From NCBI GenBank assembly GCA_049322615.1, contig JBMORX010000010.1, forward strand, positions 89,416-153,415: 64,000 nt of DNA, read 5' to 3'. Below the pieces are notes generated by a model. That model was not told where the DNA came from, did no database searches, and saw only the letters and a program-made list of their open reading frames with translations. Shown here piece by piece: positions 9,208 to 41,501 of this stretch. Numbering within the stretch: position 1 is the stretch's first letter; each line of letters opens with the position of its first letter. The stretch is from Patescibacteria group bacterium (GTDB lineage: Bacteria > Patescibacteriota > Microgenomatia > CAYGWK01). The position numbers and the translations under genes are program-made.

Positions 9208-9218
9208 ACTAATCTTAA

Positions 9219-9611: not shown

Positions 9612-9621
9612 CATTTTACAT

Positions 9622-10569: not shown

Positions 10570-10577
10570 TTTCTTTT

Positions 10578-10596
10578 GACAGGGTCCGTCCCTGTC
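10578..10596. repeat. REP-like palindromic hairpin GACAGGGTCCGTCCCTGTC, copy 1, flanking the IS200-like tnpA.
   Basis: Perfect 7-bp stem with a TCCG loop. Identical copies lie at 10790-10808 and 11301-11319. Confidence 0.8.
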
Positions 10597-11281: not shown

Positions 11282-11300
11282 TCTTTTCTTAAGAATATCT

Positions 11301-11319
11301 GACAGGGTCCGTCCCTGTC
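11301..11319. repeat. REP-like hairpin copy 3.
   Basis: GACAGGGTCCGTCCCTGTC. Confidence 0.8.
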
Positions 11320-11328
11320 AAGGGGGAT

Positions 11329-12321
11329 TTAGGTGGTTTTCTCTTTGGGGGTCTCTTCTTCAAGTTCTTCTTTTTCTTTTTGGCGCCGGCGGAGAAAAAG
11401 GACAATAAGAATAGCGATGACAATCGCCAAGACTATCGCCAGGGCGATCCTGACTGGAAAAACAACAAAGTAGAGGGTGGCAAGCAAAACCTGACCGGTC
11501 GTTCCATAAGAAGCCGATAAATCTGCCCGATAGCGACCCAAAAGATATTTAGCGTTCCAGGTATTTTGATAGATAAAAGAGGCACTGGGAAAAATATTTC
11601 TTTCCTCAAGGGGCATAACCGTGGTTACTTTACCCAACATATTTCTGACCGTAATCGTCCCCTTTGGGGCAAGATGCAAATCAGAGAGATTTAAAATCTC
11701 CGTGGTGAACTTAACCGGTCCAAATTCTAAAAACTTTGGGGCGTCGAATAATTTGACTAAAGCCCGTTCTGTTACCGGTCCTTCAACCGTAAAATAAACC
11801 AAAGTTCCAACCACTTGCTGAATAGCGGTACCGGCCCCCGTACCCGCCCCAATTCGGGGGGGAGTCCCTTTTGACTGATATAAAACTCCGGCATAATGTC
11901 CTCCAGGTAGGGCATCCAAAGGAACGTTAGCGGAGACAACGATATTAACTGTTTGTTTTGGAGCAACTGCCACTGAAGTTGGGGAAAGTCTAATCCAGGA
12001 AGAAGCCGCCCAGCGACCAGAAACTTGGGCGCCGACAAACTCCGGAGTTCCGGCGGTATCCTTGACAATAAAATCCTTGGCAACGACGGCTAGGTAGGCA
12101 GTCTCGTCTCCTTCATTTCGAAATTGAATAGTTTTTTGAACAAACTCTCCGGGCTTGACTTTGACTTCTAAACGAGGAGGAATGGCGGTAAAAATCTGGG
12201 TCTGCGCCCGCGCGAAGCGCGGAATAAGCAAATAAGCAAATAAGCAAATGACAAATAAGCCAATAATAAGAAATTTGAAATTTGAAATTTGAAATTTGAA
12301 ATTGATTTGTTTATTTGACAT
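11329..12321 (-). CDS. C-terminally membrane-anchored surface protein B1 (330 aa). It has a signal peptide, a beta-rich ectodomain, a C-terminal TM helix and a charged tail.
   Basis: MSNKQINFKFQISNFKFLIIGLFVICLFAYLLIPRFARAQ... then IPPRLEVKVKPGEFVQKTIQFRNEGDETAYL... and a C-terminal ALAIVLAIVIAILIVLFLRRRQKEKEE. It is a paralog of 14433..15452. The architecture is reminiscent of DUF916-type anchor proteins of WxL loci (from memory, unverified). Confidence 0.6.
   Translation of the reverse strand: MSNKQINFKFQISNFKFLIIGLFVICLFAYLLIPRFARAQTQIFTAIPPRLEVKVKPGEFVQKTIQFRNEGDETAYLAVVAKDFIVKDTAGTPEFVGAQVSGRWAASSWIRLSPTSVAVAPKQTVNIVVSANVPLDALPGGHYAGVLYQSKGTPPRIGAGTGAGTAIQQVVGTLVYFTVEGPVTERALVKLFDAPKFLEFGPVKFTTEILNLSDLHLAPKGTITVRNMLGKVTTVMPLEERNIFPSASFIYQNTWNAKYLLGRYRADLSASYGTTGQVLLATLYFVVFPVRIALAIVLAIVIAILIVLFLRRRQKEKEELEEETPKEKTT
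12271..12298. repeat. 4x AAATTTG heptanucleotide tandem repeat within codons 6-16 of B1, followed by three 8-nt TTGCTTAT units that form the signal-peptide core.
   Basis: aaatttg x4 at 12271-12298 encodes the NFKFQISNFKF segment on the minus strand. Confidence 0.85.
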
Positions 12322-12339
12322 TTGTATTATTTGTTTATT

Positions 12340-13849: not shown

Positions 13850-13930
13850 AGACAAGATAGGTTATCAGGTAATCAGGGTATCAGAGATAGGATATCAGGG
13901 CATCTGGGTATCAGGAAATTTTTCTCCTAA
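13850..13930. repeat. Array of about six direct TATCAGG-type units with ~10-nt period (iteron-like).
   Basis: ggttatcaggtaatcagggtatcagagataggatatcagggcatctgggtatcagg. The inverse units (cctgat) are arrayed on the other side of the gene, at 14335-14425. Confidence 0.6.
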
Positions 13931-13945
13931 TCTCTGGATATCCTT

Positions 13946-14326
13946 TTATTGTTTTTCATTCTGTTGTTTCTCCCTGATATACCTGATATAAGCATTGATT
14001 CCTTTAATTAGTCCTTCATAGCGGTCAACTAATTCCTGACTTTTGGTGGTGGCAAGATATCTTTTGCCCTCCATTTTTCTTAAATGATTCTGGGTTTCTC
14101 CTGCTTCGCGTCTGGCTAAATAGAAAGATTTAATTTTATCGTTGTAGTAATAAGTGGAATACCCTTCAGCAATCGCATCGGGCACTGAGCCAGAAGAACG
14201 CTCTGCCTGGTCTGCTAATTTAAACTTTTCCTCTCTGGGCAGAGTTTTTGTAATGGTATGGACCTCCAACATCAGCTGATAAGCTTCCTGCCAAATTCTT
14301 AATTTTTCGAAAGTCGGCTTATTCAT
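13946..14326 (-). CDS. Four-helix-bundle protein (126 aa) flanked by the TATCAGG arrays.
   Basis: Contains ADQAERSSGSVPDAIAEGYS...FYLARREAGETQNHL, which matches the four-helix-bundle pattern. Confidence 0.6.
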   Translation of the reverse strand: MNKPTFEKLRIWQEAYQLMLEVHTITKTLPREEKFKLADQAERSSGSVPDAIAEGYSTYYYNDKIKSFYLARREAGETQNHLRKMEGKRYLATTKSQELVDRYEGLIKGINAYIRYIREKQQNEKQ

Positions 14327-14334
14327 GACTTAGA

Positions 14335-14425
14335 TTATTGGGTAATCAGGTTATCGGGGCATTAGGGCTTTCTCCTGATATCCCGCTATCCTGATTTTCT
14401 ATCCCTGATCTTCAGATTCCCTAAT
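14335..14425. repeat. Array of TAATCAGG/TTATCGGG units followed by inverted CCTGAT units.
   Basis: gggtaatcaggttatcggggcatt...cctgatatcccgctatcctgattttctatccctgatcttcagattccc. Confidence 0.55.
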
Positions 14426-14432
14426 ATCCTTC

Positions 14433-15452
14433 TTAGTATCTCCACATTCTCTTTTTAATCAATAAAACTATCGAGACAGCAATAAGAATGGCTAAAGATA
14501 ACTTTCCTGGTAGCGCCAAAAAAGAAGTGACGGCTGAGAGAGTCTGACTCCCTCCATCTTCTTCTAAACTAAATTCGACCTTGGCGCGGTAAGGACCTAA
14601 TAAGAAAGAAGTGGGAAGGGCGAAGTGCCGTGCGTCGCCAGAGGCTATGCCGGCGGCGCGAGAAGTGGGAGAAGCACTAGGAGTGGCAACTTGGATTTGT
14701 CTAATTGAACCCACCAAAACATTATCAGGAATAAGTTCTTGTTCATATTTTTGACCTAAAAGCCCTTCGATTTTAATTTTTCCAAAGGGTTTCCAAAATG
14801 CTCTTCCCGTATTTTTAACTCTCAAGAGAAACTCCGGTTTATCAAAAGAATCGATGATGGGAAGTGCGAAGTGTGAAGTGCGAAGTGTGAATTCGACGAT
14901 TTCGCCCCTTTTAACTGGCTTGCCCGAGCGGGAAACGGTCAGTAAGATGTTTGAGCCAATGACGCCTGCTCCCGAAGTAGTTGTGCCACCACCTCTTTCT
15001 TTTGGCTTTGTGGAGAAAAGAAAAGTAAAATAATAATCATCCTCACGAGTATTCTCGGGAATTTTTATTCGCAGGATTATTTGTTTTGACTCGCCTGATC
15101 TTAAAACAAAAGGTTGACCTAAAGCCAGATCGGCATTCTCAAAAGAAAACCAGCCTTTCGGAGGTCCGACCTCCTCGGAGGTCGGACCTCTTAAGGAAAC
15201 GTTTCCCAGTTCATCTCCCGGCTCAAAAGGCAAAATTTGGGTGTTAATAATGGTCTCGTCCCCAGAATTCTCAAGTTGATAGGCTTGAATGATTGATTTT
15301 CCAGGCATCATCATGACCTCTAATAAAGGGGGGTAGATGGAAAGGGAAAAGGTTTGGGCCCGCGCCTCTGGCGAATGAAAAAATAAAAATGAAAATATAA
15401 AAATTACAACTAAAAATCTTAAAATTTTTAATTTTACATTGTAATTTTTCAT
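14433..15452 (-). CDS. C-terminally anchored surface protein B2 (339 aa), paralog of B1.
   Basis: Signal peptide MKNYNVKLKILRFLVVIFIFSFLFFHSPEARAQ, then LSIYPPLLEVMMMPGKSIIQAYQLENSGDETI (the same motif as B1), and a C-terminal TM LSLAILIAVSIVLLIKKRMWRY. Confidence 0.6.
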   Translation of the reverse strand: MKNYNVKLKILRFLVVIFIFSFLFFHSPEARAQTFSLSIYPPLLEVMMMPGKSIIQAYQLENSGDETIINTQILPFEPGDELGNVSLRGPTSEEVGPPKGWFSFENADLALGQPFVLRSGESKQIILRIKIPENTREDDYYFTFLFSTKPKERGGGTTTSGAGVIGSNILLTVSRSGKPVKRGEIVEFTLRTSHFALPIIDSFDKPEFLLRVKNTGRAFWKPFGKIKIEGLLGQKYEQELIPDNVLVGSIRQIQVATPSASPTSRAAGIASGDARHFALPTSFLLGPYRAKVEFSLEEDGGSQTLSAVTSFLALPGKLSLAILIAVSIVLLIKKRMWRY

Positions 15453-15473
15453 TTTTAACTTTTAACTTTTAAT

Positions 15474-16268
15474 TTAGTAGGTTGGTGTTGCCACAAAAAT
15501 AATATAGTTCTCATAATCTCCCGCCGCCTGGCTTCCCGAGATATTGACTTTATAAGTAACCGTTCCCACCCTATTTTTGCCCACCTGGGAACTTGACATG
15601 ACTATGCTTGGGTCCTCTGAGGCTGCCAAAGAGGGAAAAGGACGAAAATAAGTAGAGTTGACAAAAGTCGCCGGAATATCTTGTCCTTGCATATTATAGC
15701 CAAAACCATACTTAGTATTATCTGTCCAAGGCTGGGCCGTGGTTTCATCGCAGGTTTGGGCTCCACCATTACAGGTAGTATCGGAAATAGTGGCTGTTCC
15801 TGCCAGGGTTTTTAAGGTATCACTTTCTCGGGCGGTCACCTGATAGCCGCCGGCGCCACCGGCGGAAACAGTTAAAGTATTGGTTTGGGTTGAGGGTGTC
15901 CCTGGAGTTAAAGTGCCAAAATCAATAGATAAATCAGAGATTGTAAACCGGAAAGGGATGATGGACTTAAGATACCAAAAACCGCTTCTTACCTTGTATC
16001 CAGTTGAAGTGTAGAGTCCGGGAGCAGTCTGCCCGCCGGTGACCCCAAGTTTATAACTTGAGGAAGTGGGTAGCCCGGCGCCCATATTGACATTGCCCAT
16101 CTGGATTTTATAAGAATCGGAAGATAAGTTCTCGGCGCGAGCGCCTCGAGTAATAAGCAAATAAGCAGAGCTTGTTGCTACGCAATAAGCAAATAAGCAA
16201 ATAAGCAAATAAGCAAATAATTTGAAATTTGAAATTTGAAATTGATTTGACATTTGCTTATTTGACAT
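15474..16268 (-). CDS. Secreted surface protein A2 (264 aa), paralog of A1, with the C-terminus SGSQAAGDYENYIIFVATPTY.
   Basis: The N-terminus MSNKQMSNQFQISNFKLFAYLLICLFAYCVATSSAYLLITRGARA is encoded largely by tandem 7/8-nt repeats. The body is Thr/Gly-rich. Confidence 0.6.
   Translation of the reverse strand: MSNKQMSNQFQISNFKLFAYLLICLFAYCVATSSAYLLITRGARAENLSSDSYKIQMGNVNMGAGLPTSSSYKLGVTGGQTAPGLYTSTGYKVRSGFWYLKSIIPFRFTISDLSIDFGTLTPGTPSTQTNTLTVSAGGAGGYQVTARESDTLKTLAGTATISDTTCNGGAQTCDETTAQPWTDNTKYGFGYNMQGQDIPATFVNSTYFRPFPSLAASEDPSIVMSSSQVGKNRVGTVTYKVNISGSQAAGDYENYIIFVATPTY
16221..16241. repeat. 3x TTTGAAA heptamer tract in the A2 5' coding region. It is flanked by 4x AATAAGCA octamers (16170-16210) and GACATTT heptamers (16244-16280) around the start codon.
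   Basis: Read directly at 16170-16280. Confidence 0.85.
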
Positions 16269-16291
16269 TTGACATTTGTAATATTTGTATA

Positions 16292-17008
16292 TTATCCTTC
16301 TATCTTTTCCTTCAGCCTCTCTCCTAGTTTCAAAAGTCTTTTAGCGCTCTCATGGATTTTCTGCAAATTTTCTTTTTGAAACTGGGAAAGCCGACCAACA
16401 TCAGCCAGTAAATTTGAAGAGGTATCTAAAATTTTTAAGACATGCTCTTTAAAAGTAAGACTAATCCATAAAAGAGTATCTTCTTCTTGCTGACCGACTT
16501 CCTTCTCAAGAGACTGTTTTTTAAGACTTAAAATTTTAATTAATTCCTTTTCCTCTAGCACTTTCAAATACTGTCTGCCAAAAAATAAAGCCAAAGGAGT
16601 AATCAGTAAAAGTCCAATAACCTGGAGGAAGGCGTTTAAATTTACAACTTGTTGATAAAAGAAAAAACATAAAGCCAGGGCAAAAATTAAAGTGACCAAG
16701 GGATCAAAAAGTAAAGAAAGACCAAAAAGCAAAATATAAATTAAGAAAAAGAGGGGAGAGGAAAGCCCGCCGGTCTGGCTGACCAAAAGTAAAGTGACCA
16801 AAGAAAGAATTAGTCCGTCTATTGCCATGGTTAAGCGTAATTTTTTCGCGGCAAAGAGATGATTTAAGAAATAGAAAATAACCAAGATGGCAATCAACTG
16901 AAGAGTGAAGGCTTGAAGGATTGGGCTTTGGGTCCAGGCAAAAGTTAAAAAAACTGCCGAGAGCAAAAAGAGAAGATGAGTCAAAAATTGGGCAGACATT
17001 AATACCAT
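16292..17008 (-). CDS. Polytopic membrane protein with a C-terminal coiled-coil-like tail, hypothetical.
   Basis: 238-aa ORF with about five hydrophobic helices and then a K/E-rich heptad-like tail. The overlapping ORF at 16704..17120 is in another frame. Confidence 0.45.
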   Translation of the reverse strand: MVLMSAQFLTHLLFLLSAVFLTFAWTQSPILQAFTLQLIAILVIFYFLNHLFAAKKLRLTMAIDGLILSLVTLLLVSQTGGLSSPLFFLIYILLFGLSLLFDPLVTLIFALALCFFFYQQVVNLNAFLQVIGLLLITPLALFFGRQYLKVLEEKELIKILSLKKQSLEKEVGQQEEDTLLWISLTFKEHVLKILDTSSNLLADVGRLSQFQKENLQKIHESAKRLLKLGERLKEKIEG

Positions 17009-19678: not shown

Positions 19679-19689
19679 TTTGCCCCCTT

Positions 19690-19720
19690 TTCTTAATTAC
19701 TGTGCCGTAATTAAGAAATC
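19690..19720. promoter_or_regulatory. Perfect inverted repeat CTTAATTAC-TGTGCC-GTAATTAAG (operator-like), copy 1. It is downstream of leuS and upstream of the TrpR-like gene.
   Basis: 9-bp arms with a 6-bp spacer. A second full copy lies at 20232-20262, and a half-site overlaps a TTGACT promoter-like box at 19742-19765. Confidence 0.5.
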
Positions 19721-19771
19721 AAGGAAAATTGCCCCTTGACTTAATTACTGTGCCGTATTTAAAGTAGAGCT

Positions 19772-20230
19772 ATGACAAAGCTTTCAAGATGGAAGGTGGA
19801 GCCGGAGAAAATGAACCTTTTCCTTGACGACTTTTGGTCGGCAGTGGCTTCGCTGGAATCAAAAGAGGAGGCGAGAATGTTTTTCAATCAGTTTTTAACC
19901 CATACAGAACGGAAGATGTTTGCCAAGAGATTTCAGATCGTGATGATGCTTCTTTTGGGTTACGATTATGCAACGATTAAAAATCGAGTTCGCGTTACCG
20001 ACCCCACCATTGCCAAAATGAACAACTGGATTGAAGAGAATAGAGAAGCCCTAATAAAAGTGGCTCAAAGAATTCTTTCCCTTAAAAAGAAAAAGGGTGA
20101 AGAAACTGAAGGGAGGGGGAATGGTGGACATATGCGTGGGGATTTGCTTTCCTCGGTAGTCAGCGAAGTCTCTAACATGGTGATTAGATCAGCGGCAAGA
20201 AGGAAAAAGAGATCCTCGCTTGCTAAATAA
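19772..20230 (+). CDS. TrpR-like (YerC/YecD family) DNA-binding protein.
   Basis: FLDDFWSAVASLESKEEARMFFNQFLTHTERKMFAKRFQIVMMLLLGYDYATIKNRVRVTDPTIAK matches the YerC/YecD Trp-repressor-like family, from memory. Confidence 0.55.
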   Translation: MTKLSRWKVEPEKMNLFLDDFWSAVASLESKEEARMFFNQFLTHTERKMFAKRFQIVMMLLLGYDYATIKNRVRVTDPTIAKMNNWIEENREALIKVAQRILSLKKKKGEETEGRGNGGHMRGDLLSSVVSEVSNMVIRSAARRKKRSSLAK

Positions 20231-20231
20231 T

Positions 20232-20262
20232 TTTTCTTAATTACTGTGCCGTAATTAAGAAA
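20232..20262. promoter_or_regulatory. Operator-like inverted repeat, copy 2 (TTCTTAATTACTGTGCCGTAATTAAGAA).
   Basis: Identical to copy 1. It sits between the TrpR-like gene and comEA. Confidence 0.5.
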
Positions 20263-20269
20263 ACAACGG

Positions 20270-20918: not shown

Positions 20919-21068
20919 TGGCTCGGGTAGGAATTTGTTGTTCGGTTTCGTCATGGCATCCCCCTTCGGGGGTCGCCCTCGGATTCAAGGTTTCAAAACT
21001 CAAGTTGTGTTCCGGAGTCCTCGGGCTTGCCAGGTGAAACCTTCACAAAAATTCTACCCTCGCCCTTA
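20919..21068 (+). repeat. R-element copy 1. This is a ~150-nt structured intergenic repeat with a closing helix P1 (GGGTAGGAATT/AATTCTACCC), the conserved TTGTTG.TCGGTTTC and AAACTCAAGTTGTGTTCC boxes, two variable hairpins, and the tail CCTCGCCCTTA.
   Basis: It aligns with the copies at 22306, 22529, 32621, 35128 (divergent) and 39995 (partial). The helix pairs differ in sequence but stay complementary. Confidence 0.7.
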
Positions 21069-22301: not shown

Positions 22302-22305
22302 CTTT

Positions 22306-22456
22306 GGCTCGGAGACGAACGTTTTGCTTGAGTTTAGAGATGACGTCCGATTAAATCGGACACGGCCTGCTTAGATGAAGATTTTAAGACTCAAGTTGTG
22401 TCCCGGGAGGCGCAGGCCTGTCACATTAAACTCTGCGCAAAAGTTGTCTCCTCGCC
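22306..22456 (+). repeat. R-element copy 2 (P1 is GGAGACGAAC/GTTGTCTCC).
   Basis: ggctcggagacgaacgttttgcttgagtttagagatgacgtccgattaaatcggacacggcc...aaactcaagttgtgtcccgggaggcgcaggcctgtcacattaaactctgcgcaaaagttgtctcctcgcc. Nearly identical to copy 4 at 32621. Confidence 0.75.
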
Positions 22457-22488
22457 ATCTTTAGAAGAAAAATTTATTTAATTTTTAT

Positions 22489-22519
22489 CTTATTTTGTCT
22501 GGGTTGTAAAATTGTTTTC
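22489..22519. repeat. 31-nt direct repeat, copy 2.
   Basis: Identical to 22261-22291. Confidence 0.85.
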
Positions 22520-22528
22520 GTAGGGATG

Positions 22529-22740
22529 TGGCTCGGGAATGAATTTGTTGCTTGGATTTAGTGATGGCTCCCGCCAATTAGGCGGGACCAGCTCGCGACT
22601 GGGTAATTCGAAACTCAAGTTGTGTTCCAGGGGGTCGCGGCTTGGAACGTCAGACGTTCCTTGCCACTTAAATCCGGCGCAAAAATTATTCCCTCGCCCT
22701 TAATTTCTTAATATCTTAGTCTCTTAATATCTTTTATTTT
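22529..22740 (+). repeat. R-element copy 3 (P1 is GGGAATGAATT/AATTATTCCC) plus the 3' tail CCTCGCCCTTAATTTCTTAATATCTTAGTCTCTTAATATCTT, which runs up to the ATG at 22741.
   Basis: Shares the same boxes. The tail is shared with copy 4 (32770-32811), which ends at the mreB ATG. Confidence 0.7.
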
Positions 22741-23622: not shown

Positions 23623-24104
23623 TTTTCCTGACGGAATTGCCGGCGTTTTTTGAAAAGATTCTCGCGGAAGCCGCCCTCTCGGATAAATTTTTTTCTTAGG
23701 GATTCGATTTGTTTTTCTAAAAGATAGGTGGTTCTCTGACAAAGCATTATCATAAGATTGGCCGCTAGCTCTGGATTGTGGGGGATATGGGGGAATTGGG
23801 GGAGATGGGGGAAGGGTTCCCTCACCACCCTCAAATCCCTCAACTTCCTCATTCTCGGGTCGTCTTTTGACCAAATTTCCAATCCTCTTTGTCTTAAGAA
23901 ATCCTCATAGTCTTCTTCTAATTCTTTAATTGACCCTTTAGAAATACCTAAGAATTTAATATAGCCCTCTAATTCATATCCTTCGACGATGTCTTGTTTT
24001 CCAGATCTTCCTGCTTGTGTCATCTGGTCTCTTTGGCGAAGGAGCTCGCGTCCAGGTAAAAATTTAGGACAGAATTCAGTGGTTAAGTCGTATATTTTAG
24101 ACAA
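23619..24104 (-). CDS. Four-helix-bundle protein with C-terminal suffix (161 aa).
   Basis: RDQMTQAGRSGKQDIVEG...EEDYEDFLRQRGLEIWSKDDPR...EGGFRENLFKKRRQFRQEN. Paralog of 6840..7490 and 30651..31241. Confidence 0.55.
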   Translation of the reverse strand: MSKIYDLTTEFCPKFLPGRELLRQRDQMTQAGRSGKQDIVEGYELEGYIKFLGISKGSIKELEEDYEDFLRQRGLEIWSKDDPRMRKLRDLRVVREPFPHLPQFPHIPHNPELAANLMIMLCQRTTYLLEKQIESLRKKFIREGGFRENLFKKRRQFRQEN

Positions 24105-24452: not shown

Positions 24453-26204
24453 ATGATTCGCGACCAGATTAAAAAAGATTTTGGAAAGGTTTTGGAAAAA
24501 CTGCGGATTTCCCCGGAGAAATTGGTTTTTGAGCACCCAGAAAATCCCGAATTTGGCGATTATTCGACGAATATTGCCCTAAAATTAAAAGTCAAAAGTC
24601 AAAAGTTAAAAGTTGCCAATCCTTTTGATTTGGCAAACAAAATTGTCAACACCTGGCGCTCTCAGGGATTGCCTGACTGGTTAGCCAAAATCCAGGTTGC
24701 TCCGCCGGGATTTATTAATTTGTGGCTAAAAGAAGACCTTCTTATCGGTCAACTTTCCCAAGTGCTAAGAGAAAAAGATGGATTCGGCAGGCTCGCCATT
24801 GGTAAGGGCAAAACCGTCATCGTTGACTATTCTTCGCCCAATATTGCCAAGCCTTTTGGTATCGGTCATCTTCGCTCAACCATTATTGGTCAGGCGCTTT
24901 ATAATCTTTATAAATTCTTGGGTTTTAAGGTTATCGGTGATAACCATTTGGGCGATTGGGGGACACAATTTGGGAAATTAATTTACCAAATTAAAAGTCA
25001 AAAATTAAAAGTTAAAAATTTGACGATTGAGGATTTGGAGAGACTCTACGTTGACTTTCATAAGAAGGCAGAAGAAAATCCCAAACTTGAGGATGAGGCA
25101 AGAGCCTGGTTTAAAAAACTTGAAGAAGGGGATAAAGAGGCGAGAAAAATCTGGCAAGCCTGTGTCGATATATCCCTCCGGGAATTTGCCCGAGTTTATA
25201 AACTTTTAGGCATAAAATTTGACGTTTCTTACGGCGAAAGTTTTTATGAAGGTAAAATGGCAGAGGTTGTCTTTGAAGCCAAGAAAAAGGGAATCGCCAA
25301 AGAAAGCCAAGGCGCCCTGATTATTCCCATCCCAGGAATGGAAACTCCTTTGATGCTTTTAAAATCTGATGGGGCGACCACCTACGAAACCCGGGAGTTG
25401 GCAACGATTAAATATAGAAAAAAGCGCTGGCACCCGGTTCTTGCGATTTGGGAAGTTGGAGCAGATCAAAAATTTCATTTTCTAAAGTCTTTTGCCGCCG
25501 CCGAACTACTTGGTTACGGAAAAATGCAGCAGTTTGTTCATGTTCCTCATGGTTTGATACGGTGGGTTTATGGCAAATTTTCCACCAGAAAAGGAGAGAC
25601 AATTCATTTGGAAGAGGTTTTAAGTGAGGCAATAAAGCGGGCGGAAAAGATAATTTCCGAATCGGAAACCAGTCGCGGACTTTCCAAAAAAGAGAAAAAA
25701 GAGGTCGCCGAAGCGGTTGGGGTTGGAGCAGTTGTCTATTTTGATCTATCTCATCAGCCGGAAACAGACATTATTTTTGACTGGGAGAAGATTTTTGTTT
25801 TGGAGGGCAATTCCGGACCGTATTTACAGTATACTTATGCTCGTTGCCAGTCGGTCTTGGCTAAAGCCAAACTTAAGCAATTTAGCAATCTAGCAATCGA
25901 GCAATCTAGCAATTTGAACCCGGAAGAATTATCAATTTTGCGCACCATTTACAAGTTTCCTGAAGTGGTTCAATCTTCAGCCGAGGCTTTCTCGCCAAAT
26001 CTGCTTTGCAATTTTCTTTTTGATTTGTGCCAAAAATATAATCTTTTTTACCAAAAACACCCGATCCTGAAACCGCAAAAACGCGGAAATTTAGCAGAAA
26101 CGCAGAAAATAAGAGAACTCCGACTTGGTTTAACCGCCGCCACTGGTCAGGTTTTGCAGAATGGATTGACGTTATTGGGAATAAAAACATTGGAGAGAAT
26201 GTAA
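24453..26204 (+). CDS. argS: Arginyl-tRNA synthetase.
   Basis: 583 aa with SSPNIAKPFGIGHLRSTIIGQALYNLYKF (class-I HIGH region of ArgRS). It contains two in-frame copies of an AAAAGTCAAAAGT-type repeat (24588-24612 and 24988-25018, peptide KSQKLKV) and a 4x ~8-nt AGCAATCT repeat (25880-25912). Confidence 0.93.
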   Translation: MIRDQIKKDFGKVLEKLRISPEKLVFEHPENPEFGDYSTNIALKLKVKSQKLKVANPFDLANKIVNTWRSQGLPDWLAKIQVAPPGFINLWLKEDLLIGQLSQVLREKDGFGRLAIGKGKTVIVDYSSPNIAKPFGIGHLRSTIIGQALYNLYKFLGFKVIGDNHLGDWGTQFGKLIYQIKSQKLKVKNLTIEDLERLYVDFHKKAEENPKLEDEARAWFKKLEEGDKEARKIWQACVDISLREFARVYKLLGIKFDVSYGESFYEGKMAEVVFEAKKKGIAKESQGALIIPIPGMETPLMLLKSDGATTYETRELATIKYRKKRWHPVLAIWEVGADQKFHFLKSFAAAELLGYGKMQQFVHVPHGLIRWVYGKFSTRKGETIHLEEVLSEAIKRAEKIISESETSRGLSKKEKKEVAEAVGVGAVVYFDLSHQPETDIIFDWEKIFVLEGNSGPYLQYTYARCQSVLAKAKLKQFSNLAIEQSSNLNPEELSILRTIYKFPEVVQSSAEAFSPNLLCNFLFDLCQKYNLFYQKHPILKPQKRGNLAETQKIRELRLGLTAATGQVLQNGLTLLGIKTLERM

Positions 26205-26220
26205 GGTTAGGAGAATCGGA

Positions 26221-26365
26221 AAAATTCGGAGGATCAGAACACTCAGAGAAATCAGTGTGTCAGAGAATCAGATAAATCAGAGGGTCAGAATGTCAGATTT
26301 TCTGAGTTTCTGGAACTCTGAAATTCTGGTTCTCTGAGTATTCCGAGTATTCTGAAATCTCTGAA
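26221..26365. repeat. Palindromic ATCAGA-array element, copy 1. About eight forward TCAGA units are followed by about seven inverted TCTGA units, with long hairpin potential.
   Basis: ggatcagaacactcagagaaatcagtgtgtcagagaatcagataaatcagagggtcagaatgtcagattttctgagtttctggaactctgaaattctggttctctgagtattccgagtattctgaaatctctgaa. The reverse complement of 51770-51890 aligns with it at high identity (estimated by eye). Confidence 0.8.
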
Positions 26366-26368
26366 AAT

Positions 26369-27637
26369 ATGGATTATAAAAAAACTATTCTTAAAAACGA
26401 CCTGCAACTTTTAACCGTCTCCATGCCTCATGTTGAATCGGTGACCGTCATGGTTGGGGTTGGGGCTGGCTCAAGATATGAGACCAAAAACCTAGTTGGT
26501 CTTTTCCATTTCCTCGAGCACATGGCTTTCAAGGGAACAAAAAAACGACCGTCGGCTTTGGCGATTTCTTCGGCAATTGATGGAGTTGGGGGAGAGTTTA
26601 ACGCTTCAACTGACAAAGAAATAACTTTATATTACGTTAAACTGGCGGCTAAACACCAAGAACTTGCTTTTGATATTTTGAGCGATATGCTGACCAATTC
26701 GCTTTTCAAAAGAGAAGAGATTGAGCGAGACCGGGGAGTGATTATTGAGGAACTAAATATGTTTGAGGATACGCCAATGAGGCGAATTTTAGATGTTTTT
26801 GTCAGGCTTCTTTATGGTGATAACCCAATGGGGTGGGATATTGGCGGCGAGAAGAAGACGATTAGGCAAATTAAAAGAGAAGACTTCTTAAATTTTCAAG
26901 AAAAACTTTATTACGCTAGTAATATGGCTTTGATTGTCGCTGGTAAGATTAACGAAAAAGAAATAAGAAGCCTGGCTAGTCAATATTTTTCTGGCTTAAG
27001 AAAAACCGGGCAAAAGCCATCAAAAGAGATAAAACTACAACAGGCGAGACCGCAGGTGAAACTGGTGAGCAAAAAAACCGAACAGGCTCATTTTTGTTTA
27101 GGGGTGCCTGGATTTTGGTATTCTCATCCGGACAGGTTTGTCATCGCCGTTTTGGCGGCAATTTTAGGCGGCGGGATGAGTTCAAGGCTATTTATCCAAG
27201 TTAGGGAGCGGCGAGGTTTGGCTTATTATGTTGCCTGCACGCCTGAATTTTTCCTCGATTCTGGCTTTTTGCTTGCCCGGGCCGGGGTAAAACTTGAAAA
27301 AATTGATGAGGCAATAAAAGTTTGTTTAGACCAATTTTTTGATTTAGGAAAAAAGAAAGTATCTCAAAAAGAACTTTCCAAAGCCAAAGAATACTTAAAA
27401 GGAGGTTTGATTTTGGCTTTAGAGGATTCAAAACAAGTGGCGGAACGCTATGTTGTTCAGGCACTTTTAGAGGAGAGAATCAGAACGCCGGAGGAGGTGA
27501 TGAAGTTAATTGATAAAGTAACGGTTGACGATGTTCAAAAAGTGGCTAAAGAAATTTTTCAACAAAAAAATTTAAATCTAGCGATTATTAGTCCCTACCG
27601 GGAGGAAAGCCGTTTTCGGAAGCTTTTAGGGCTTTAA
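26369..27637 (+). CDS. M16-family (insulinase/pitrilysin-like) zinc peptidase.
   Basis: HFLEHMAFKGT inverted zinc-binding motif HxxEH. 422 aa. Confidence 0.85.
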   Translation: MDYKKTILKNDLQLLTVSMPHVESVTVMVGVGAGSRYETKNLVGLFHFLEHMAFKGTKKRPSALAISSAIDGVGGEFNASTDKEITLYYVKLAAKHQELAFDILSDMLTNSLFKREEIERDRGVIIEELNMFEDTPMRRILDVFVRLLYGDNPMGWDIGGEKKTIRQIKREDFLNFQEKLYYASNMALIVAGKINEKEIRSLASQYFSGLRKTGQKPSKEIKLQQARPQVKLVSKKTEQAHFCLGVPGFWYSHPDRFVIAVLAAILGGGMSSRLFIQVRERRGLAYYVACTPEFFLDSGFLLARAGVKLEKIDEAIKVCLDQFFDLGKKKVSQKELSKAKEYLKGGLILALEDSKQVAERYVVQALLEERIRTPEEVMKLIDKVTVDDVQKVAKEIFQQKNLNLAIISPYREESRFRKLLGL

Positions 27638-30076: not shown

Positions 30077-30434
30077 AGCAACGTATTATATCAATCTAAT
30101 ACGAAAAAATCTAAAAATTATTATTTTCTATATAATGGAAATGCGTTATTATTATTTAGGGATTAGTGATAGAATAGGTATAATTATCAATAAAAAAATA
30201 GCGATTGCGAAGCAATCGCAAAATCGCGCGCGCAAAAAATAATTGCGAAGAATTAGCATTCTTCGCAAAACGTGTCGGCTCGAACTTCTTTTTATCTAAT
30301 CGGCAGCTCTCGGCAGAATATAAGCAGAGCTTGATTTTTCGCTTTGCTCAAAATTAAAAAGGGCTTTGCGGCGCTCCGTGCGGGCGGCGGCGCACGGAGC
30401 GCCTCCACCTCGACGGACTCTTTTTCTCTTTTTG

Positions 30435-30650: not shown

Positions 30651-31241
30651 ATGCTGCCTAAATACAAATACCTTTTGACTTACCGTTATGCCGAAATTAT
30701 TCAGGACGGAACAAACGATTTTTGTCTAAGACACTTAAGTGACTTAAGAAACTTAAGAATTCCTACGAGGCGGACTGTCGAGCAGATGACGCAAAGCGGC
30801 CGGAGTCTGAAACAAAATATTATTGAGGCAGTAAGCGATAGTCTGACTTCGAAAAAAACCGAGATTAAACTTTTGGGAGTAGCCTACGGTTCGGTTGAAG
30901 AATTGATTGCCGATTTTGAAGATTTTTTAAGACAAAGAAACCTGCAAATTTGGCCGAAAACAGATAAGCGAGTCTTAATCTTTCGTCGACTTGGGTATCG
31001 CTTAAGTAACCTAAGTAACCTAAGTAACCTAAGTAACCTAAGTAACTTAGGAAACTTAAAAGAAAAACTAGTTTTACCGGAAAATCCCGAAGAAGCGGCC
31101 AATTTACTTTTGACTTTGTGTCACATGGAGAGTTATCTTTTAAGTTGTCAAATTAAAGCGGCGGAAGAAAAATTTATCAAAGAAGGCGGCTACACGGAAA
31201 ACTTGTTTAAAAAGCGCCTTGAAAGTAGAATACTTAAGTAA
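30651..31241 (+). CDS. Four-helix-bundle protein with suffix (196 aa). It contains an in-frame tandem repeat.
   Basis: RRTVEQMTQSGRSLKQNIIEA...EGGYTENLFKKRLESRILK. An internal 5x 12-nt repeat AAGTAACCTAAG (31002-31056) encodes LSNLSNLSNLSNLGNL. Confidence 0.55.
   Translation: MLPKYKYLLTYRYAEIIQDGTNDFCLRHLSDLRNLRIPTRRTVEQMTQSGRSLKQNIIEAVSDSLTSKKTEIKLLGVAYGSVEELIADFEDFLRQRNLQIWPKTDKRVLIFRRLGYRLSNLSNLSNLSNLSNLGNLKEKLVLPENPEEAANLLLTLCHMESYLLSCQIKAAEEKFIKEGGYTENLFKKRLESRILK
31002..31056. repeat. 5x 12-nt tandem repeat (CTTAAGTAACCT-type) inside the four-helix-bundle gene. Further CTTAAG-containing repeats lie at 30740-30770 and 31232-31265.
   Basis: cttaagtaacctaagtaacctaagtaacctaagtaacctaagtaacttagga. 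Confidence 0.85.
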
Positions 31242-31268
31242 CTTAAGTGACTTAAGTTACTTAGGATT

Positions 31269-32588: not shown

Positions 32589-32620
32589 AAGTTGGTATAA
32601 TTGGGAAGTTTTTGGTTTGT

Positions 32621-32811
32621 TGGCTCGGAGACGAACGTTTTGCTTGAGTTTAGAGATGACGTCCCGCTTTGCGGGACACGGCCTGCTTAGATGAAGATTT
32701 CAAAACTCAAGTTGTGTTCCGGGAGGCGCAGGCCTGTCACATTAAACTCTGCGCAAAAGTTGTCTCCTCGCCCTTAATTTCTTAATATCTTAGTCTCTTA
32801 ATATCTTAAAA
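32621..32811 (+). repeat. R-element copy 4 plus its tail, directly abutting the mreB start codon.
   Basis: Near-identical to copy 2 (22306-22456) except for the P2 hairpin loop. The tail cctcgcccttaatttcttaatatcttagtctcttaatatcttaaaa is followed by the ATG at 32812. Confidence 0.75.
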
Positions 32812-35109: not shown

Positions 35110-35127
35110 TAATTTTCGCTAGGTATC

Positions 35128-35300
35128 GACTCGGAGACGAACGTTTTGCTTGAGTTTAGATTGGATTGTTAGATTATTTGCTAGGGTATAGGGGATGAGT
35201 TAAGGTGAAGTAGCGCGTTACGGCTACGTCAATGGGTGACGTTACCCATAAACCAATCCTTAACGCGCCGCGTCACCATCACCGTAACCGTAACCTTTAT
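35128..35300 (+). repeat. R-element copy 5 (the 5' half CTCGGAGACGAACGTTTTGCTTGAGTTTAG is conserved, the 3' part divergent).
   Basis: The first 34 nt match copies 2 and 4. The rest carries GTTAC/GTAAC-rich hairpins. Confidence 0.5.
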
Positions 35301-38220: not shown

Positions 38221-38321
38221 ATTAATTCACCCCCTTTCATTAAATAAATTCAAAAATTAAATATCAAAAATCAAAATTACAGATTAAAATTTAAAAATTT
38301 TTGCATTTTGAATTGTCATTT

Positions 38322-38831
38322 TTAATTTTTCATTTTACATTTTGCATTTAAGACAAGAATTAATTTTTTGGTATTTGCTCCGAGGACATTTACAAATCTT
38401 TCTGAAGGAAACCTAAGCAGGGAAAGAAGATTAACTATTAATTCTTGTCTGCTGGGCAGGCTTCCTAATTTTTCCACTTCTTCCTTGGTTAGTGCTCTAT
38501 CTTCCCAAATACCAGATTTGAATGTTGGCAGACCTTGAGTTTTGGCAAAATCAAAAACACTTTTAATTGGCGCAAGCTCATCTTGATAAGCCAAAACAAG
38601 CGCGGTTGGACCAGAAAGTTCCAGTTCTGGTAATTTTTGTTCTTTTAAAGCAAGCTTAAGGAGGGTATTTTTGACCACCAAAAATTGCCCCCCAGCCTTT
38701 TTAACCAGCGTCCGAAGCTGGCTTATTTGGGGAACGGTAAGACCACGATAGTCTGTCAAAACAATACTTTTGGCTTGTTTTAAGCCTTCGGCTAAATTGG
38801 CGACAGCAAAAATTTTTTCCTGTTTCTTCAT
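38322..38831 (-). CDS. rplJ: Ribosomal protein L10.
   Basis: MKKQEKIFAVANLAEGLKQAKSIVLTDYRGLTVPQISQLRTLVKKAGGQFLVVKNTL. Confidence 0.9.
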   Translation of the reverse strand: MKKQEKIFAVANLAEGLKQAKSIVLTDYRGLTVPQISQLRTLVKKAGGQFLVVKNTLLKLALKEQKLPELELSGPTALVLAYQDELAPIKSVFDFAKTQGLPTFKSGIWEDRALTKEEVEKLGSLPSRQELIVNLLSLLRFPSERFVNVLGANTKKLILVLNAKCKMKN

Positions 38832-39138: not shown

Positions 39139-39187
39139 ATCCCTAAACACAAACTCTTGCTATAGCTTGACTTTGTGTTTATGAAAA
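39139..39187. repeat. CACA..TTCTTGCTATAGC..TGTG hairpin element, copy 1. It is the left flank of the cassette inserted between rplA and rplJ.
   Basis: acacaaactcttgctatagcttgactttgtgtt. A direct repeat lies at 39893-39935 and an inverted copy at 49868-49905. Confidence 0.7.
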
Positions 39188-39208
39188 GTTATGGTTAATT
39201 TATAATTT

Positions 39209-39895
39209 ATGAAGGTTAGAAAGATAAAGCAGAGAAAAGAAAGAAAGCCGTCTGAGTATAAATTAGCCCTTAGGGATGTTGATTGGGAGAAAGTGGCAAA
39301 AATTTTTGAGCCAGAAAAAGAATCAATTATTAATTCTTTAAAAAAAGAAATTGATAGGTATCCCTACAGTAGGGAAATACTTTATCTTTTAGCGGCTGGG
39401 GTTTTTCTTGGAGGGACAATCATTTTTCCCTGTTTTCCCGCCGCCGTAGCCCCACTTTTAGGTGAATGGGACAAATATCACCGAGGAAGACTAAGCCAGA
39501 CAATTAAAAGATTTAAAAAACAAAAATTGGTAGAGATTGAGGAAGAAAATGGACAGCAAATAGTTAAAATTACCGAAAAGGGGAGAACGCGGGCTTTGAA
39601 ATACAAACTTGATGAGATGAAAATAAAAAAGCCAAATGTTTGGGATAAGAAATGGAGAATTGTCATTTTTGATATTTTCGAAAAGAAAAAGTGGTTTAGA
39701 GAAATTTTTAGGGCAAGACTTAAACAACTTGGTCTCTTTCGCCTCCAGGATTCAGTTTTTGTTTTTCCTTACCCTTGTTTTGAGGAAATTGAATTCCTTC
39801 GTCAGATCTATGGAGTTCCACTTGAGGTAAGGTATGTTATAGCAGAAAAAATTGAAGACGAGGGAGATTTGAAAAGCCAGTTTAACCTTTCATAG
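39209..39895 (+). CDS. Hypothetical protein with a PaaX-like C-terminal region, encoded on the opposite strand inside the ribosomal cluster.
   Basis: 228 aa. ...KKWRIVIFDIFEKKKWFREIFRARLKQLGLFRLQDSVFVFPYP resembles the PaaX-type repressor C-terminal segment (from memory, weak). Confidence 0.4.
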   Translation: MKVRKIKQRKERKPSEYKLALRDVDWEKVAKIFEPEKESIINSLKKEIDRYPYSREILYLLAAGVFLGGTIIFPCFPAAVAPLLGEWDKYHRGRLSQTIKRFKKQKLVEIEEENGQQIVKITEKGRTRALKYKLDEMKIKKPNVWDKKWRIVIFDIFEKKKWFREIFRARLKQLGLFRLQDSVFVFPYPCFEEIEFLRQIYGVPLEVRYVIAEKIEDEGDLKSQFNLS

Positions 39896-39935
39896 ACACA
39901 AATTCTTGCTATAGCATAATTTTGTGTTTATGAAG
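39893..39935. repeat. CACA..TGTG hairpin element, copy 2 (the right flank, a direct repeat of copy 1).
   Basis: gacacaaattcttgctatagcataattttgtgtttatgaag. Confidence 0.7.
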
Positions 39936-39994: not shown

Positions 39995-40100
39995 GGTGGA
40001 GATGAATTTTTGTTTTTTGGGTTCGGGAACGAATTTTTGCTTGGATTTAAAAATGGTTCCCGCCGATTCGGGGACCTACTGGCTTAAGTTAGTTTTCAAT
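39995..40100 (+). repeat. R-element copy 6 (partial or degenerate).
   Basis: ggggtggagatgaatttttgtt...gggaacgaatttttgcttggatttaaaaatggttcccgccgattcggggacc. Shares the 5' boxes and the P2-type hairpin. Confidence 0.45.
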
Positions 40101-40106
40101 TATAAA

Positions 40107-40994
40107 TTATAGATTATCAATGGCTACCTTAACTGCCGGTCCCATTGTTCCCTTAATAACCGCTTTTTTGATATTTTTTGTTCCCACTGCCGAAAGATAA
40201 GTTTTTAGATTCTCTTCCAGTTCTTTTTCAGGCTGGGAAATTTTACCAAAGACAGCGTGGACTAAAGGAGCATTTTGTTCTGTTTTAAAAGAGACTGATG
40301 TCTTTTGAAATCTTTTGATGGCTTCCTCTGGCTTATCGGTGATGGTGCCATTTTTTGGATTGGGCATCAAGCCTTTGGGACCAAGTAATTTGGCAAATTG
40401 GACTAATTTGGGCATAAAAGCTGGAGTCGCCAACAATATATCAAAATCTATCTTCCCCACCTCAATCTTCTTTAATGTCTCCTCGTTGGCAATTTCAATC
40501 CTTCTTGCCTTGCCGGCAAAATAGGGGAGAGAAACATCGCCTGAGATTCCGGTTTTTCCGGTGACCAGGTGGAGTTCCGCTGCTCCATCAAAACGAGCGA
40601 AGGAGGTTTCCTTAAGAAGCCTTATTGCTTCGGAAAGGGGGTAGGATTTGCTTGGGTCAATCTTAACTTTAGCGGCGAGATACTTTTTACCTCGGATTTT
40701 GGGTGGCTTGACTTCTTTTAATTTTGCTTCTTTCTGCGTCTCTGCTTGCTTTTGCGTCTCCGCGGTTACGGGTTCGGCCGTGATCGCCACCACTCTTTCG
40801 CCACCCTTTAAGCCAGGAACACGCACTCTCTGAGTGCCCTTTTCCTCTTTCAGGGATTTCTTGTGCTCTTTTTTTGGTTTTCCTTCTTCGCCTAGGATGG
40901 CGACTCTTTTTTTACCCACGTTCCCTCCGGTCAAATTAAAAATTAAAAATGAAAAATTAAAAACGACAAATAAGCAAAGCTTGTTGCTTCGCAA
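40107..40994 (-). CDS. rplA: Ribosomal protein L1. The ORF carries a long N-terminal extension, and the true start is probably downstream, near KIRGKKYLAAKV.
   Basis: ...IRGKKYLAAKVKIDPSKSYPLSEAIRLLKETSFARFDGAAELHLV... matches the L1 N-terminus. The first 22 codons (MRSNKLCLFVVFNF...) are encoded by the recurring AATAAGCAAAGCTTGTTGCTTCGCAT element. Confidence 0.8.
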   Translation of the reverse strand: MRSNKLCLFVVFNFSFLIFNLTGGNVGKKRVAILGEEGKPKKEHKKSLKEEKGTQRVRVPGLKGGERVVAITAEPVTAETQKQAETQKEAKLKEVKPPKIRGKKYLAAKVKIDPSKSYPLSEAIRLLKETSFARFDGAAELHLVTGKTGISGDVSLPYFAGKARRIEIANEETLKKIEVGKIDFDILLATPAFMPKLVQFAKLLGPKGLMPNPKNGTITDKPEEAIKRFQKTSVSFKTEQNAPLVHAVFGKISQPEKELEENLKTYLSAVGTKNIKKAVIKGTMGPAVKVAIDNL

Positions 40995-41078
40995 TAAAAA
41001 TCTTAAAAATTTTTAATTTTACATTGTAATTTTTATTTTTTATTTCGCTAGAAACAAGCTTGCTTATATTTTCATTTT

Positions 41079-41501
41079 TCATTTTATTGTTACTCCCATC
41101 GACCTGGCCGTGCCCTCAACAATCCTTTCGGCTGCCTCCAAATCTTCAGTATTTAAATCTTTCATTTTCTCTTGGGCAATTTTTTGGACTTGTTCTCGCG
41201 TTAGCACTCCAACTTCCTCTCTGCCAGTTGCTCCTGAACCCTTTTCTAAAGCCAAGGTTTTTTTAATCATATCCGCCACTGGCGGAAGCTTGGTAACAAA
41301 AGAAAAAGTTCGATCCTCATAAACCGTAATCACCACGGGAATGATGTTTCCCTTCATTTGGGCAGTTTTTTCGTTGTAGGCTTTGACAAAATCCATAATT
41401 GGCAGTCCATGTGAGCCGAGTGCTGGACCAACCGGCGGCGCCGGAGTGGCTTCACCAGCCGGAAGATTAAGCTTGATGATGGTTTTTACTTTCTTAGGCA
41501 T
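41079..41501 (-). CDS. rplK: Ribosomal protein L11.
   Basis: [46 protein letters not shown]. Confidence 0.95.

Follow-up and report, generated by a model that had tools for sequence, protein, structure and literature searches.

Background

Bacterial palindromes of the miniature inverted-repeat transposable element (MITE) type (ERIC, Correia/NEMIS, RUP and the Rickettsia palindromic elements, RPE) are imperfect palindromes of 100-160 nt which are dispersed, are present or absent between relatives and are co-transcribed with flanking genes; RPE lie inside Rickettsia genes. We analyzed two palindromes, hereafter A and B, found in a 64,000-nt stretch of Patescibacteria DNA (the window; positions 89,416 to 153,415 of the 161.7-kb contig JBMORX010000010.1), whose closest named relatives, judged by its proteins, are Shapirobacteria and Gottesmanbacteria, in Microgenomates. 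A lies between argS and an M16 peptidase gene, B between rpmG and a tRNA-Trp gene. The reading that we favor, with moderate confidence, is that A and B are hairpin insertion elements devoid of open reading frames (ORF), similar to MITE and to the intervening sequences (IVS) of rRNA genes and co-transcribed with their host genes, each consisting of a block of about ten (R)TCAGA(R) octamer or nonamer units followed by the same core inverted. In our best reading both represent a class of elements, the "tandem-array palindromes", which has expanded in this Patescibacteria genome, is found sporadically in many bacterial phyla and comes in two forms: with a small PF05635/TIGR02436 four-helix-bundle gene between or inside the arms, or gene-less like A and B.

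As in MITE, A and B are short (<600 bp), non-coding and have inverted termini. They differ by the absence of a target-site duplication and of a parent insertion sequence encoding a transposase, and they differ from MITE-type palindromes by an internal tandem-unit structure and by the coexistence of many unrelated families in one genome.

Since 1993 the "intervening-sequence protein" of family PF05635 has remained an orphan. The IVS of Coxiella is a selfish stem-loop with an S23p ORF, whose terminal inverted repeats form a stem cut by RNase III; what the PF05635 protein does, where IVS elements come from and how they move are called unclear (PMC4990558). In rRNA genes of the candidate phyla radiation (CPR), ORF-less and ORF-bearing insertions coexist (PMC11270868). 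IVS are transcribed within a host RNA and are regarded as selfish (PMC4990558, PMC11270868), and A and B would likewise be transcribed with their neighbors. Like the rRNA IVS of Coxiella, Leptospira and Salmonella and the CPR rRNA insertions, A and B are sporadic, lineage-specific inserts, absent in five related sequences (L121, L122, L123, L211 and L205), and have inverted-repeat ends forming a long stem, predicted in our case. The loop of such elements is empty, as in A and B, or holds a PF05635 four-helix-bundle gene; PF05635 genes lie between inverted arms in the window and in 61 metagenomic loci examined below. The differences are that A and B reside in mRNA or pre-tRNA spacers and not in helices of 16S or 23S rRNA (there is no rRNA in the window), that their arms are tandem arrays of 8-9-nt units whereas IVS arms are described as unique inverted repeats, and that, unlike the ORF-bearing subtype, they contain no ORF; three sister cassettes (13859-14430, 30726-31264 and 7008-7408) do contain a PF05635 ORF.

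Two other kinds of repeats are comparable. Repetitive extragenic palindromes (REP) and the REPIN that they form are extragenic, hairpin-forming, non-autonomous repeats of about 100 nt (PMC3116915, PMC3733652). A and B share these features, and genes resembling REP-associated tyrosine transposases (RAYT) are present in the same genome; however, A and B are composed of 14-18 octamer units, with no pair of compact 20-40-nt REP hairpins. The short tandemly repeated repetitive (STRR) heptamers of cyanobacteria and the TAACTGA repeats of Beggiatoaceae, Cyanobacteria and Bacteroidetes are direct arrays (169 direct sets versus one indirect in BOGUAY). They resemble A and B in having 7-9-nt tandem units, mostly intergenic, just upstream of start codons and sometimes in ORFs, with a patchy distribution among lineages (PMC4679880). 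A and B differ from them by units of 8-9 nt, by paired inverted arrays forming hairpins and by their copying as colinear elements; the account of those repeats mentions no link to PF05635 genes. Many solo direct arrays of 7-nt units are found elsewhere in the window.

Structure and kinship of elements A and B

Element A, on the forward strand, occupies the whole spacer from the argS stop codon (26204) to the ATG of the M16 peptidase gene (26369). As delimited from the unit table and from homology to B, its 5' arm (26216-26300) contains 10 units with the core TC[A/G]G[A/T], separated by purine-rich spacers of 3-5 nt, and its 3' arm (26301-26368), whose last base directly precedes the ATG, contains 8 inverted units (TCTGA, TCTGG, TCCGA; core TC[T/C]G[A/G]). 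Element B, on the reverse strand, occupies the whole spacer from the rpmG stop codon (51885) to the 5' end of tRNA-Trp (51761). Its 5' arm (51806-51880) has 9 units in the order of units 2-10 of A, and its 3' arm (51763-51805) has 5 inverted units, the last base directly preceding the 5' end of the tRNA. The elements measure 118-153 nt and contain no ORF with a family match; the ORF 51623-51829, which overlaps B, is spurious. A first-pass annotation, made from the letters alone, had located both segments, with extents that are corrected here. Its layout of direct units followed by inverted ones also stands, but its count of about eight has to be replaced by 10 forward and 8 inverted units in A and by 9 and 5 in B, and its spacing of about 10 nt by the 8-9 nt measured in both elements.

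The same annotation regarded the two segments as reverse complements at high identity, and this is confirmed: the arm of A at 26222-26312 is 92% complementary to the arm of B at 51794-51884 across 91 nt, and a second block, in a shifted register (26317-26354/51776-51813), is 89% complementary over 38 nt. The local alignment score of A versus B is 165. When the units of A were permuted within each arm, the score against B fell to 84 +/- 14, with a maximum of 140 in 500 permutations. Moreover the nine units of the 5' arm of B are colinear with those of A, including their idiosyncratic spacers (GGA, ACAC, GAAA, GYG, GAA, TAAA, RGG, ATR, WTT). The drop on permutation and the colinearity show that A and B are copies by descent and not the outcome of convergence on one motif. 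Conservation is higher in cores than in spacers, which are free to vary: 15 of 19 forward cores are exactly TCAGA, and four of the five substitutions between A and B in the shared arm fall in spacers. The 3' arms of A and B differ by gains, losses and rearrangements of whole units; the arrays turn over by whole units.

Both elements are imperfect palindromes over their full length, and the expected ability to form a long hairpin was borne out by folding. The minimum free energy (MFE) of the RNA is -64.0 kcal/mol for A (z -6.4) and -47.6 kcal/mol for B (z -6.9), none of 200 shuffled sequences folding as well in either case; as single-stranded DNA, A reaches -28.8 kcal/mol (z -5.1). The predicted stem of the transcripts is about 46-56 base pairs long, and in B the outer units pair together (AATTTCAGAGGATCAGAA with TTCTGGTTCTCTGGAAT). 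Within an element, the two arms are only imperfectly complementary: pairing relies largely on TCAGA/TCTGA cores plus G-U pairs, so that the earlier description of "the same units inverted" applies to the cores and not to the arms as a whole. No sigma-70-like promoter was found by scanning inside A or B, neither element matches an Rfam family, and the readings of A and B as promoter, known RNA family or defence system were rejected. There is no rnc gene within the 64-kb window. A polarity with the purine-rich arm first was also considered as a sign of orientation and was dropped, because both strands of any such palindrome have it.

The host genes are co-directional on either side of A, and likewise of B, and their earlier names (argS, M16 peptidase and tRNA-Trp) are correct according to Pfam, ARAGORN and Rfam. 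Upstream of A, argS (24453-26204, +) has the Pfam domains tRNA-synt_1d, DALR_1 and Arg_tRNA_synt_N and its product is 100% identical to NCBI MFZ5366544.1; downstream, the peptidase gene (26369-27637, +) has Peptidase_M16 and Peptidase_M16_C. Upstream of B, rpmG (51885-52055, -; Pfam Ribosomal_L33) encodes an L33 protein 100% identical to MFZ5366574.1; downstream, the tRNA-Trp gene (51690-51761, -) is found by both ARAGORN and Rfam.

Filled and empty sites in relatives

The gene order ComEC(Competence)-MBL-argS-M16 is preserved in relatives, and the argS-M16 palindrome is absent in the four examined. The spacer between argS and the M16 gene is 5 nt in L122 (ArgRS 77% identical) and 19 nt in L211 (63%); the junction is occupied by an unrelated 151-aa ORF in L121 (80%) and by an unrelated 642-aa ORF in L123 (71%). 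At the site of B, the rpmG-to-tRNA-Trp spacer of a Shapirobacteria sequence (L205; L33 84% identical) is 26 nt long (GGTTTAGATTTTAGATATTAGTAAAT) and has no inverted arm. The spacers of 5, 19 and 26 nt in relatives show that A and B are lineage-specific insertions at tight junctions between co-directional genes. The same contrast is seen at two ribosomal-protein junctions. In L121, rplJ/rplL and rplK/rplA are tight, i.e. adjacent or overlapping (rplK and rplA overlap), whereas in the window each of these junctions contains an A/T-rich array palindrome of 100-150 nt, placed between the stop codon and the Shine-Dalgarno of the next gene.

Other array palindromes in the window

Tandem Repeats Finder (TRF) returned 138 rows for the window; merging yields 48 array regions with periods of 6-10, some ten of them palindromic and gene-less. 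In comparison, 41 kb of syntenic relatives contain 13 array regions and no palindrome, which reads as a burst of array palindromes specific to this lineage. In a count of 11 gene-less palindromes, seven lie between co-directional genes, two between divergent genes, none between convergent genes and two inside genes, one of the latter in a degenerate PF05635 ORF and the other in frame inside rnhB. The first-pass annotation had suggested a tie to tRNA or aminoacyl-tRNA synthetase (aaRS) genes; this is not supported, since sisters have other surroundings, namely ribosomal-protein operons, junctions of unrelated genes and even the reading frame of rnhB.

The elements of this genome are built from different units. 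Palindrome 38245-38349, made of A/T-rich units, lies between rplJ and rplL, where L121 has no insert, and 40933-41085, also gene-less, lies between rplK and rplA, which overlap in L121. Gene-less palindromes are also found between two minus-strand genes (15374-15475) and between divergent genes (61752-61879, of the A/T-rich family). The A/T-rich family has four dispersed copies in the window. Palindromes 12223-12339 and 16184-16293 both contain AATAAGCA, together with GAAATTT and inverted units in the former and AATTTGA and inverted units in the latter; 8430-8584 has AAATTCT units and a 69-nt loop. Palindrome 23779-23851 (TGGGGGAAA/CCCTCAAAT) is nested in the degenerate PF05635 ORF. Palindrome 46503-46595, on the forward strand, is composed of four AATTAAGA followed by four CTTAATAT, in frame inside rnhB (46091-46918); PDB alignments of RNase HII are interrupted across residues 140-187 of the rnhB product, at the palindrome. 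This in-frame position recalls RPE.

Several further arrays and motifs were observed. Within argS, octamer or heptamer arrays are in frame at 25876-25913, 24582-24614 and 24988-25020; one argS array consists of 4.8 copies of AGCAATCT and encodes KQFSNLAIEQSSNL in a variable loop of the anticodon-binding domain, and the first array (25876-25913) is kept in the 80%-identical relative (L121, 2642-2679). The motif GCGAAGCAACAAGCTTTGCTTATT, a small palindrome around AAGCTT, occurs at 10540-10567, 16156-16183, 30315-30342, 40965-40992, 41030-41050, 52082-52133 and about 61775-61793, mostly just 5' of the starts of minus-strand genes (rpmG, rplA and others). The AATAAGCA arrays at 12223-12266 and 16184-16220 resemble tandem expansions of the terminal octamer of this motif.

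Association of array palindromes with PF05635 genes

The window contains five PF05635-like ORFs, of which three have clear inverted arms, one is borderline and one has none. The TIGR02436/PF05635 gene 13946-14326 belongs to a minus-strand cassette (13859-14430) bounded by inverted ATCAGG arrays (13859-13916/14373-14430; 58 nt, 74%; inverted flank score 44). A second cassette (30726-31264, +), between tRNA-Pro and tRNA-Arg, has a PF05635-like ORF between inverted CTTAAGT arrays (30726-30762/31228-31264; 37 nt, 84%). In the third (7008-7408, -), a PF05635-like domain within a longer ORF is bounded by 29-nt inverted repeats (7008-7036/7380-7408; score 33). The borderline case (9211-9660, +; TIGR02436 gene 9219-9611) has heptamer arrays at both ends and an inverted score of 23, equal to the 95th percentile of controls.

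A and B share the architecture of these PF05635 cassettes. The first-pass annotation had seen a likeness to the TATCAGG arrays around the four-helix-bundle gene near 13.9 kb. Homology of A and B to the ATCAGG arms of that cassette was rejected, the scores against the arms of the four-helix-bundle cassettes of the window being only 18-26; since A and B fail to align with these arms, the resemblance is architectural, and in this form it is both real and general.

The generality was assessed on an array-blind sample of 80 metagenomic PF05635 loci, obtained from a two-sequence alignment and covering one PF05635 subfamily, so that the argument rests also on the distant examples from the window and from genomes. 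Inverted flank complementarity exceeds the 95th percentile of shifted controls in 51 of the 61 loci having both flanks (84%), with a median score of 38 versus 17.5 in controls. Arrays of period 5-11 are found at 200 nt or less from the gene in 71 of the 80 loci, for a background rate of 0.36 array per kb; the commonest period is 8 (75 rows), followed by 7 (40) and 9 (23). A like flank pattern is present in five of six genome PF05635 loci (Verrucomicrobiota, Chloroflexota, Bacteroidota).

Between co-oriented host genes, the cassettes fit precisely into the interval from stop codon to ATG, e.g. at cysD-cysN in L020, L125 and L143. The reported presence of PF05635 genes wedged between cas genes (PMC3936711) fits such an intercistronic insertion. 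The cassettes of L179/L182 and of L186, 82% identical in protein and both with GTCRTGCAG units, occupy different genomic sites: in L179/L182 the cassette is enclosed by efflux genes, in L186 it adjoins a tRNA. They also differ in unit number (4 versus 11). In four loci (L187, L189, L200, L141) the PF05635 gene lies inside one arm, with direct arrays on either side. Among nine gene-less palindromes sharing a contig with a cassette, three have their best match in the arms of that very cassette (ranks 0-1 of 79). In L154, two paralogous downstream genes are preceded by the same arms, one with the gene and one without. For the four-helix-bundle protein encoded between TCAGA-type arms no catalytic activity is known, and PF05635 is distantly related, by sub-threshold matches, to Avd, a nucleic-acid-binding protein of diversity-generating retroelements. 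We found no literature description of tandem-array arms around PF05635 genes, nor of gene-less array palindromes as derivatives of PF05635 cassettes; journal coverage was incomplete and an earlier description is possible.

TCAGA arrays in other genomes

A permissive genome scan with a four-unit TCAGA pattern gave at least 120 loci in many phyla, which documents spread and is no census of copies; what follows holds among the matches listed. TCAGAnnn arrays are present in Bacteroidota, Chloroflexota, Actinomycetota, Planctomycetota, Acidobacteriota, Pseudomonadota and CPR. An inverted partner was found within 160 nt downstream for 13 of the 112 arrays evaluated, within 700 nt downstream for four more, two of which enclose a PF05635 gene, and upstream for only four. 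Six loci drawn solely by their TCAGA arrays have a PF05635 gene, in four cases abutting the array. Gene-less TCAGA palindromes also exist in Levyibacteriota (L010), Neolewinella, Thermoanaerobaculia, Flavobacteriales and Nitrospinota, where the palindrome adjoins a tRNA; one Paludibacteraceae metagenome-assembled genome contains two (L031, L108). The Levyibacteriota sequence has three other array palindromes in 8 kb, and its TCAGA palindrome is weakly similar to A and B (score 57, short blastn matches only). A separate observation concerns a Daviesbacteria sequence (L068, about 5050-5160), in which 13 perfect AGAGTCAG units lie inside an apparent coding region; long TCAGA-type arrays can therefore be translated.

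Evaluation of the insertion-element reading and of its alternatives

Several observations weigh against the reading of A and B as mobile elements. Only two copies were counted in the 64-kb window, and an exact 23-mer of A/B has no match in the JGI metagenome collection. No target-site duplication appears when filled and empty junctions are compared at argS/M16, rplJ/rplL and rplK/rplA, no transposase gene flanked by TCAGA arrays exists in the window, and we know of no enzyme that moves such elements. With the cassette arms, A and B have only the unit type in common. About 85% of the TCAGA arrays elsewhere, among the matches listed, are solo direct arrays without inverted partner; therefore arrays can exist without being elements. 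The empty L205 spacer (3172-3197 of L205) contains three TTAGA units with an 8-nt period, possibly a proto-array at the site of B, so that some array growth in situ is allowed. Finally, the sense RNAs of A and B are about 8.5 kcal/mol more stable than the antisense ones, but these two values depend on each other, and sister elements do not follow the trend consistently, for which reason it carries no weight here. The first-pass annotation had hesitated between MITE-like palindromes and arrays of binding sites for a DNA-binding protein. "MITE-like palindromic element" is the better half: it agrees with diverged copies at unrelated loci, empty orthologous sites and many sister palindromes in the window, and falls short on target-site duplication, separate terminal inverted repeats and a cognate transposase.

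Mobilization in trans of REPIN-like, non-autonomous single-stranded DNA hairpins by RAYT-like transposases (IS200-type, Y1/HUH) of the same genome is an unlikely explanation. Two Y1_Tnp genes are present in the window (10595-11281 and 42468-43175, both minus strand), above the Pfam cut-off, and match the NCBIfam model "REP-associated tyrosine transposase" with sub-threshold scores. Each is bracketed by identical short and perfect hairpins of its own, as in REP/RAYT units, A does fold as single-stranded DNA, and REPINs are hairpin-forming doublets of like size (PMC3116915). However, the hairpins flanking these genes (TGACAGGGACGGACCCTGTCA, TTAACCTCTAAGGTTA) are unrelated to A and B and found nowhere else in the window, which makes RAYT mobilization a minor rival. 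In addition A and B, besides lacking the REP hairpin pair, have no shared tag of the GTAG/CGTC type (GTAG occurs near B only), and the palindrome families of this genome use unrelated units, which one or two sequence-specific RAYTs are not expected to serve. As to the genes themselves, the two RAYT-like proteins are 34% identical to each other; the TGACAGGGACGGACCCTGTCA hairpin occurs three times at the first gene (10577-10597, 10789-10809, inside the gene, and 11300-11320) and the TTAACCTCTAAGGTTA hairpins flank the second (42414-42429, 43191-43206).

We also give little credit to functional binding-site arrays, in which a multimeric protein, possibly a ring-forming four-helix-bundle protein, would recognize the TCAGA core at intervals of 8-9 nt, whether on DNA or on RNA, and would regulate or package adjacent genes. 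The better conservation of cores than of spacers is in line with it, as are the four-helix-bundle genes physically embedded in such arrays across phyla and their kinship with Avd. Core conservation is, however, equally explained by register-independent pairing of the arms after unit slippage. At neither locus do the closest relatives have the sites, so that these cannot be conserved regulators of argS, of the M16 peptidase gene or of tRNA-Trp; every element family has its own unit, so that one protein cannot serve all; and a period of 8-9 bp does not put the sites on one face of B-DNA. The binding-site half of the earlier interpretation is thus not supported, though it keeps a low probability.

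Growth in place is quite improbable as a full account: arrays would have expanded by replication slippage in two AT-rich spacers, followed by a single ectopic gene conversion or segmental copy, and A and B would be debris. The genome is saturated with 7-9-nt arrays, some in frame inside argS and one conserved in L121, and the TTAGA proto-array, the whole-unit differences between 3' arms and the prevalence of solo arrays go in the same direction. Nevertheless the nine units with idiosyncratic spacers, colinear in A and B, require at least one copy event to an unrelated locus. The A/T-rich family shows a like dispersal, insertions are placed precisely between stop and start signals of tight operons, and same-arm cassettes occur at different sites in other genomes.

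Last, it is most improbable that A and B are terminators or attenuators separating argS from the peptidase gene and rpmG from tRNA-Trp: both hairpins are long, stable and directly after a stop codon, but a terminator scan finds no site inside A or B, no U-tract follows either hairpin on either strand, sisters lie inside the rplKA and rplJL operons and in frame in rnhB, where termination would harm, and none of the 11 gene-less palindromes is between convergent genes.

Other features of the window and of relatives

A structured repeat family of about 190 nt is present at 22304-22491, 22528-22733 and 32620-32807 (MFE about -62 to -65 kcal/mol per 160 nt). It also occurs as partial copies, at 20987-21040, 35126-35170 and 40017-40061, and matches no Rfam family. 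In comEC, the Competence and MBL parts are set apart by two copies in tandem; at the same junction L122 has one copy (2345-2520) and L123 none. This family may be another mobile non-coding element or an RNA of unknown type. The MBL-argS junction of the window contains an 830-nt insert with a degenerate PF05635 gene; in L211, a 230-nt GC-rich structured leader (2269-2500) lies between the MBL gene and argS and may be a T-box-like element.

Two regulator-like genes are enclosed in inverted repeats: a Trp-repressor-like ORF (19772-20230; repeats 19688-20263, 31-nt arms, 87%) and a PaaX-like ORF (39209-39895; repeats 39144-39930, 48-nt arms, 83%), the latter inserted between rplJ and rplA. An arm related to these brackets is found at 49871-49910. 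Such regulator-like genes in long unique inverted repeats represent another kind of gene-in-a-hairpin cassette. Recurrent GC-rich hairpins starting with ACGTAAA[AG], e.g. CACGTAAAGCCCGCTAATAAGCGGGCCACGTG, occur at about 34230, 46141, 49775 and 62070 and may be a further REP-like family. A tRNA-like gene (47912-47987, -) has an eight-base anticodon loop with the four-base anticodon "ctta" according to ARAGORN, and scores 54.7 bits with the Rfam tRNA model. Finally, positions 1-5300 contain long repeats with a period of about 300 nt, up to 96% identical over 300 nt, and few long ORFs; this is probably a giant repetitive protein gene, running off the window or frame-disrupted.

Proposed mechanism and implications

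If A and B are inserted hairpins of the MITE/IVS kind, they would be transcribed with their host genes and the RNA would fold into a stem of about 50 bp. By analogy with rRNA intervening sequences (PMC4990558), this stem may be cut by RNase III; alternatively it may act as a 3' stability barrier like other intercistronic palindromes. Either way the neighboring cistrons would be uncoupled. New copies would arise by some copy-and-paste process, and slippage, or unequal exchange involving whole units, would lengthen, shorten and rearrange the arrays. A and B are most likely selfish or near-neutral rather than regulators of argS or tRNA-Trp.

A wider proposal, which we put forward only tentatively, is that array palindromes with or without a TIGR02436/PF05635 gene form one pan-bacterial class of mobile cassettes moving without any known transposase. 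The arms (7-9-nt units, purine-rich in 5' and pyrimidine-rich in 3') would be both substrate and product of propagation; one possibility is that the units are bound by an Avd-like four-helix-bundle multimer, which would recruit a polymerase of the host or a reverse transcriptase. Under this proposal, "23S rRNA intervening sequences" in the classical sense would represent only the minority of the class that resides in rRNA, and A and B its non-autonomous, gene-less form.

A and B themselves are modest, i.e. two copies of a selfish-looking hairpin, and if they were merely slippage debris the finding would be an ordinary one. They point to a wider pattern, apparently undescribed so far, around a gene family that has long been an orphan. 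In practice, 50-bp hairpins come to lie within essential operons (rplKA, rplJL, aaRS genes, tRNA leaders) through such elements, which can also mislead gene callers and CRISPR or repeat finders. If A, B and their sisters are the gene-less form of the same element as IVS, then IVS-type elements, far from being a peculiarity of rRNA, would make up a broad category of insertions in transcribed spacers. On the same condition, inverted arrays of 7-9-nt units would provide a searchable DNA signature with which to define element ends, empty sites and copy-number dynamics, and Patescibacteria with recent bursts, such as this one, would supply many pairs of filled and empty sites for studying the mechanism.

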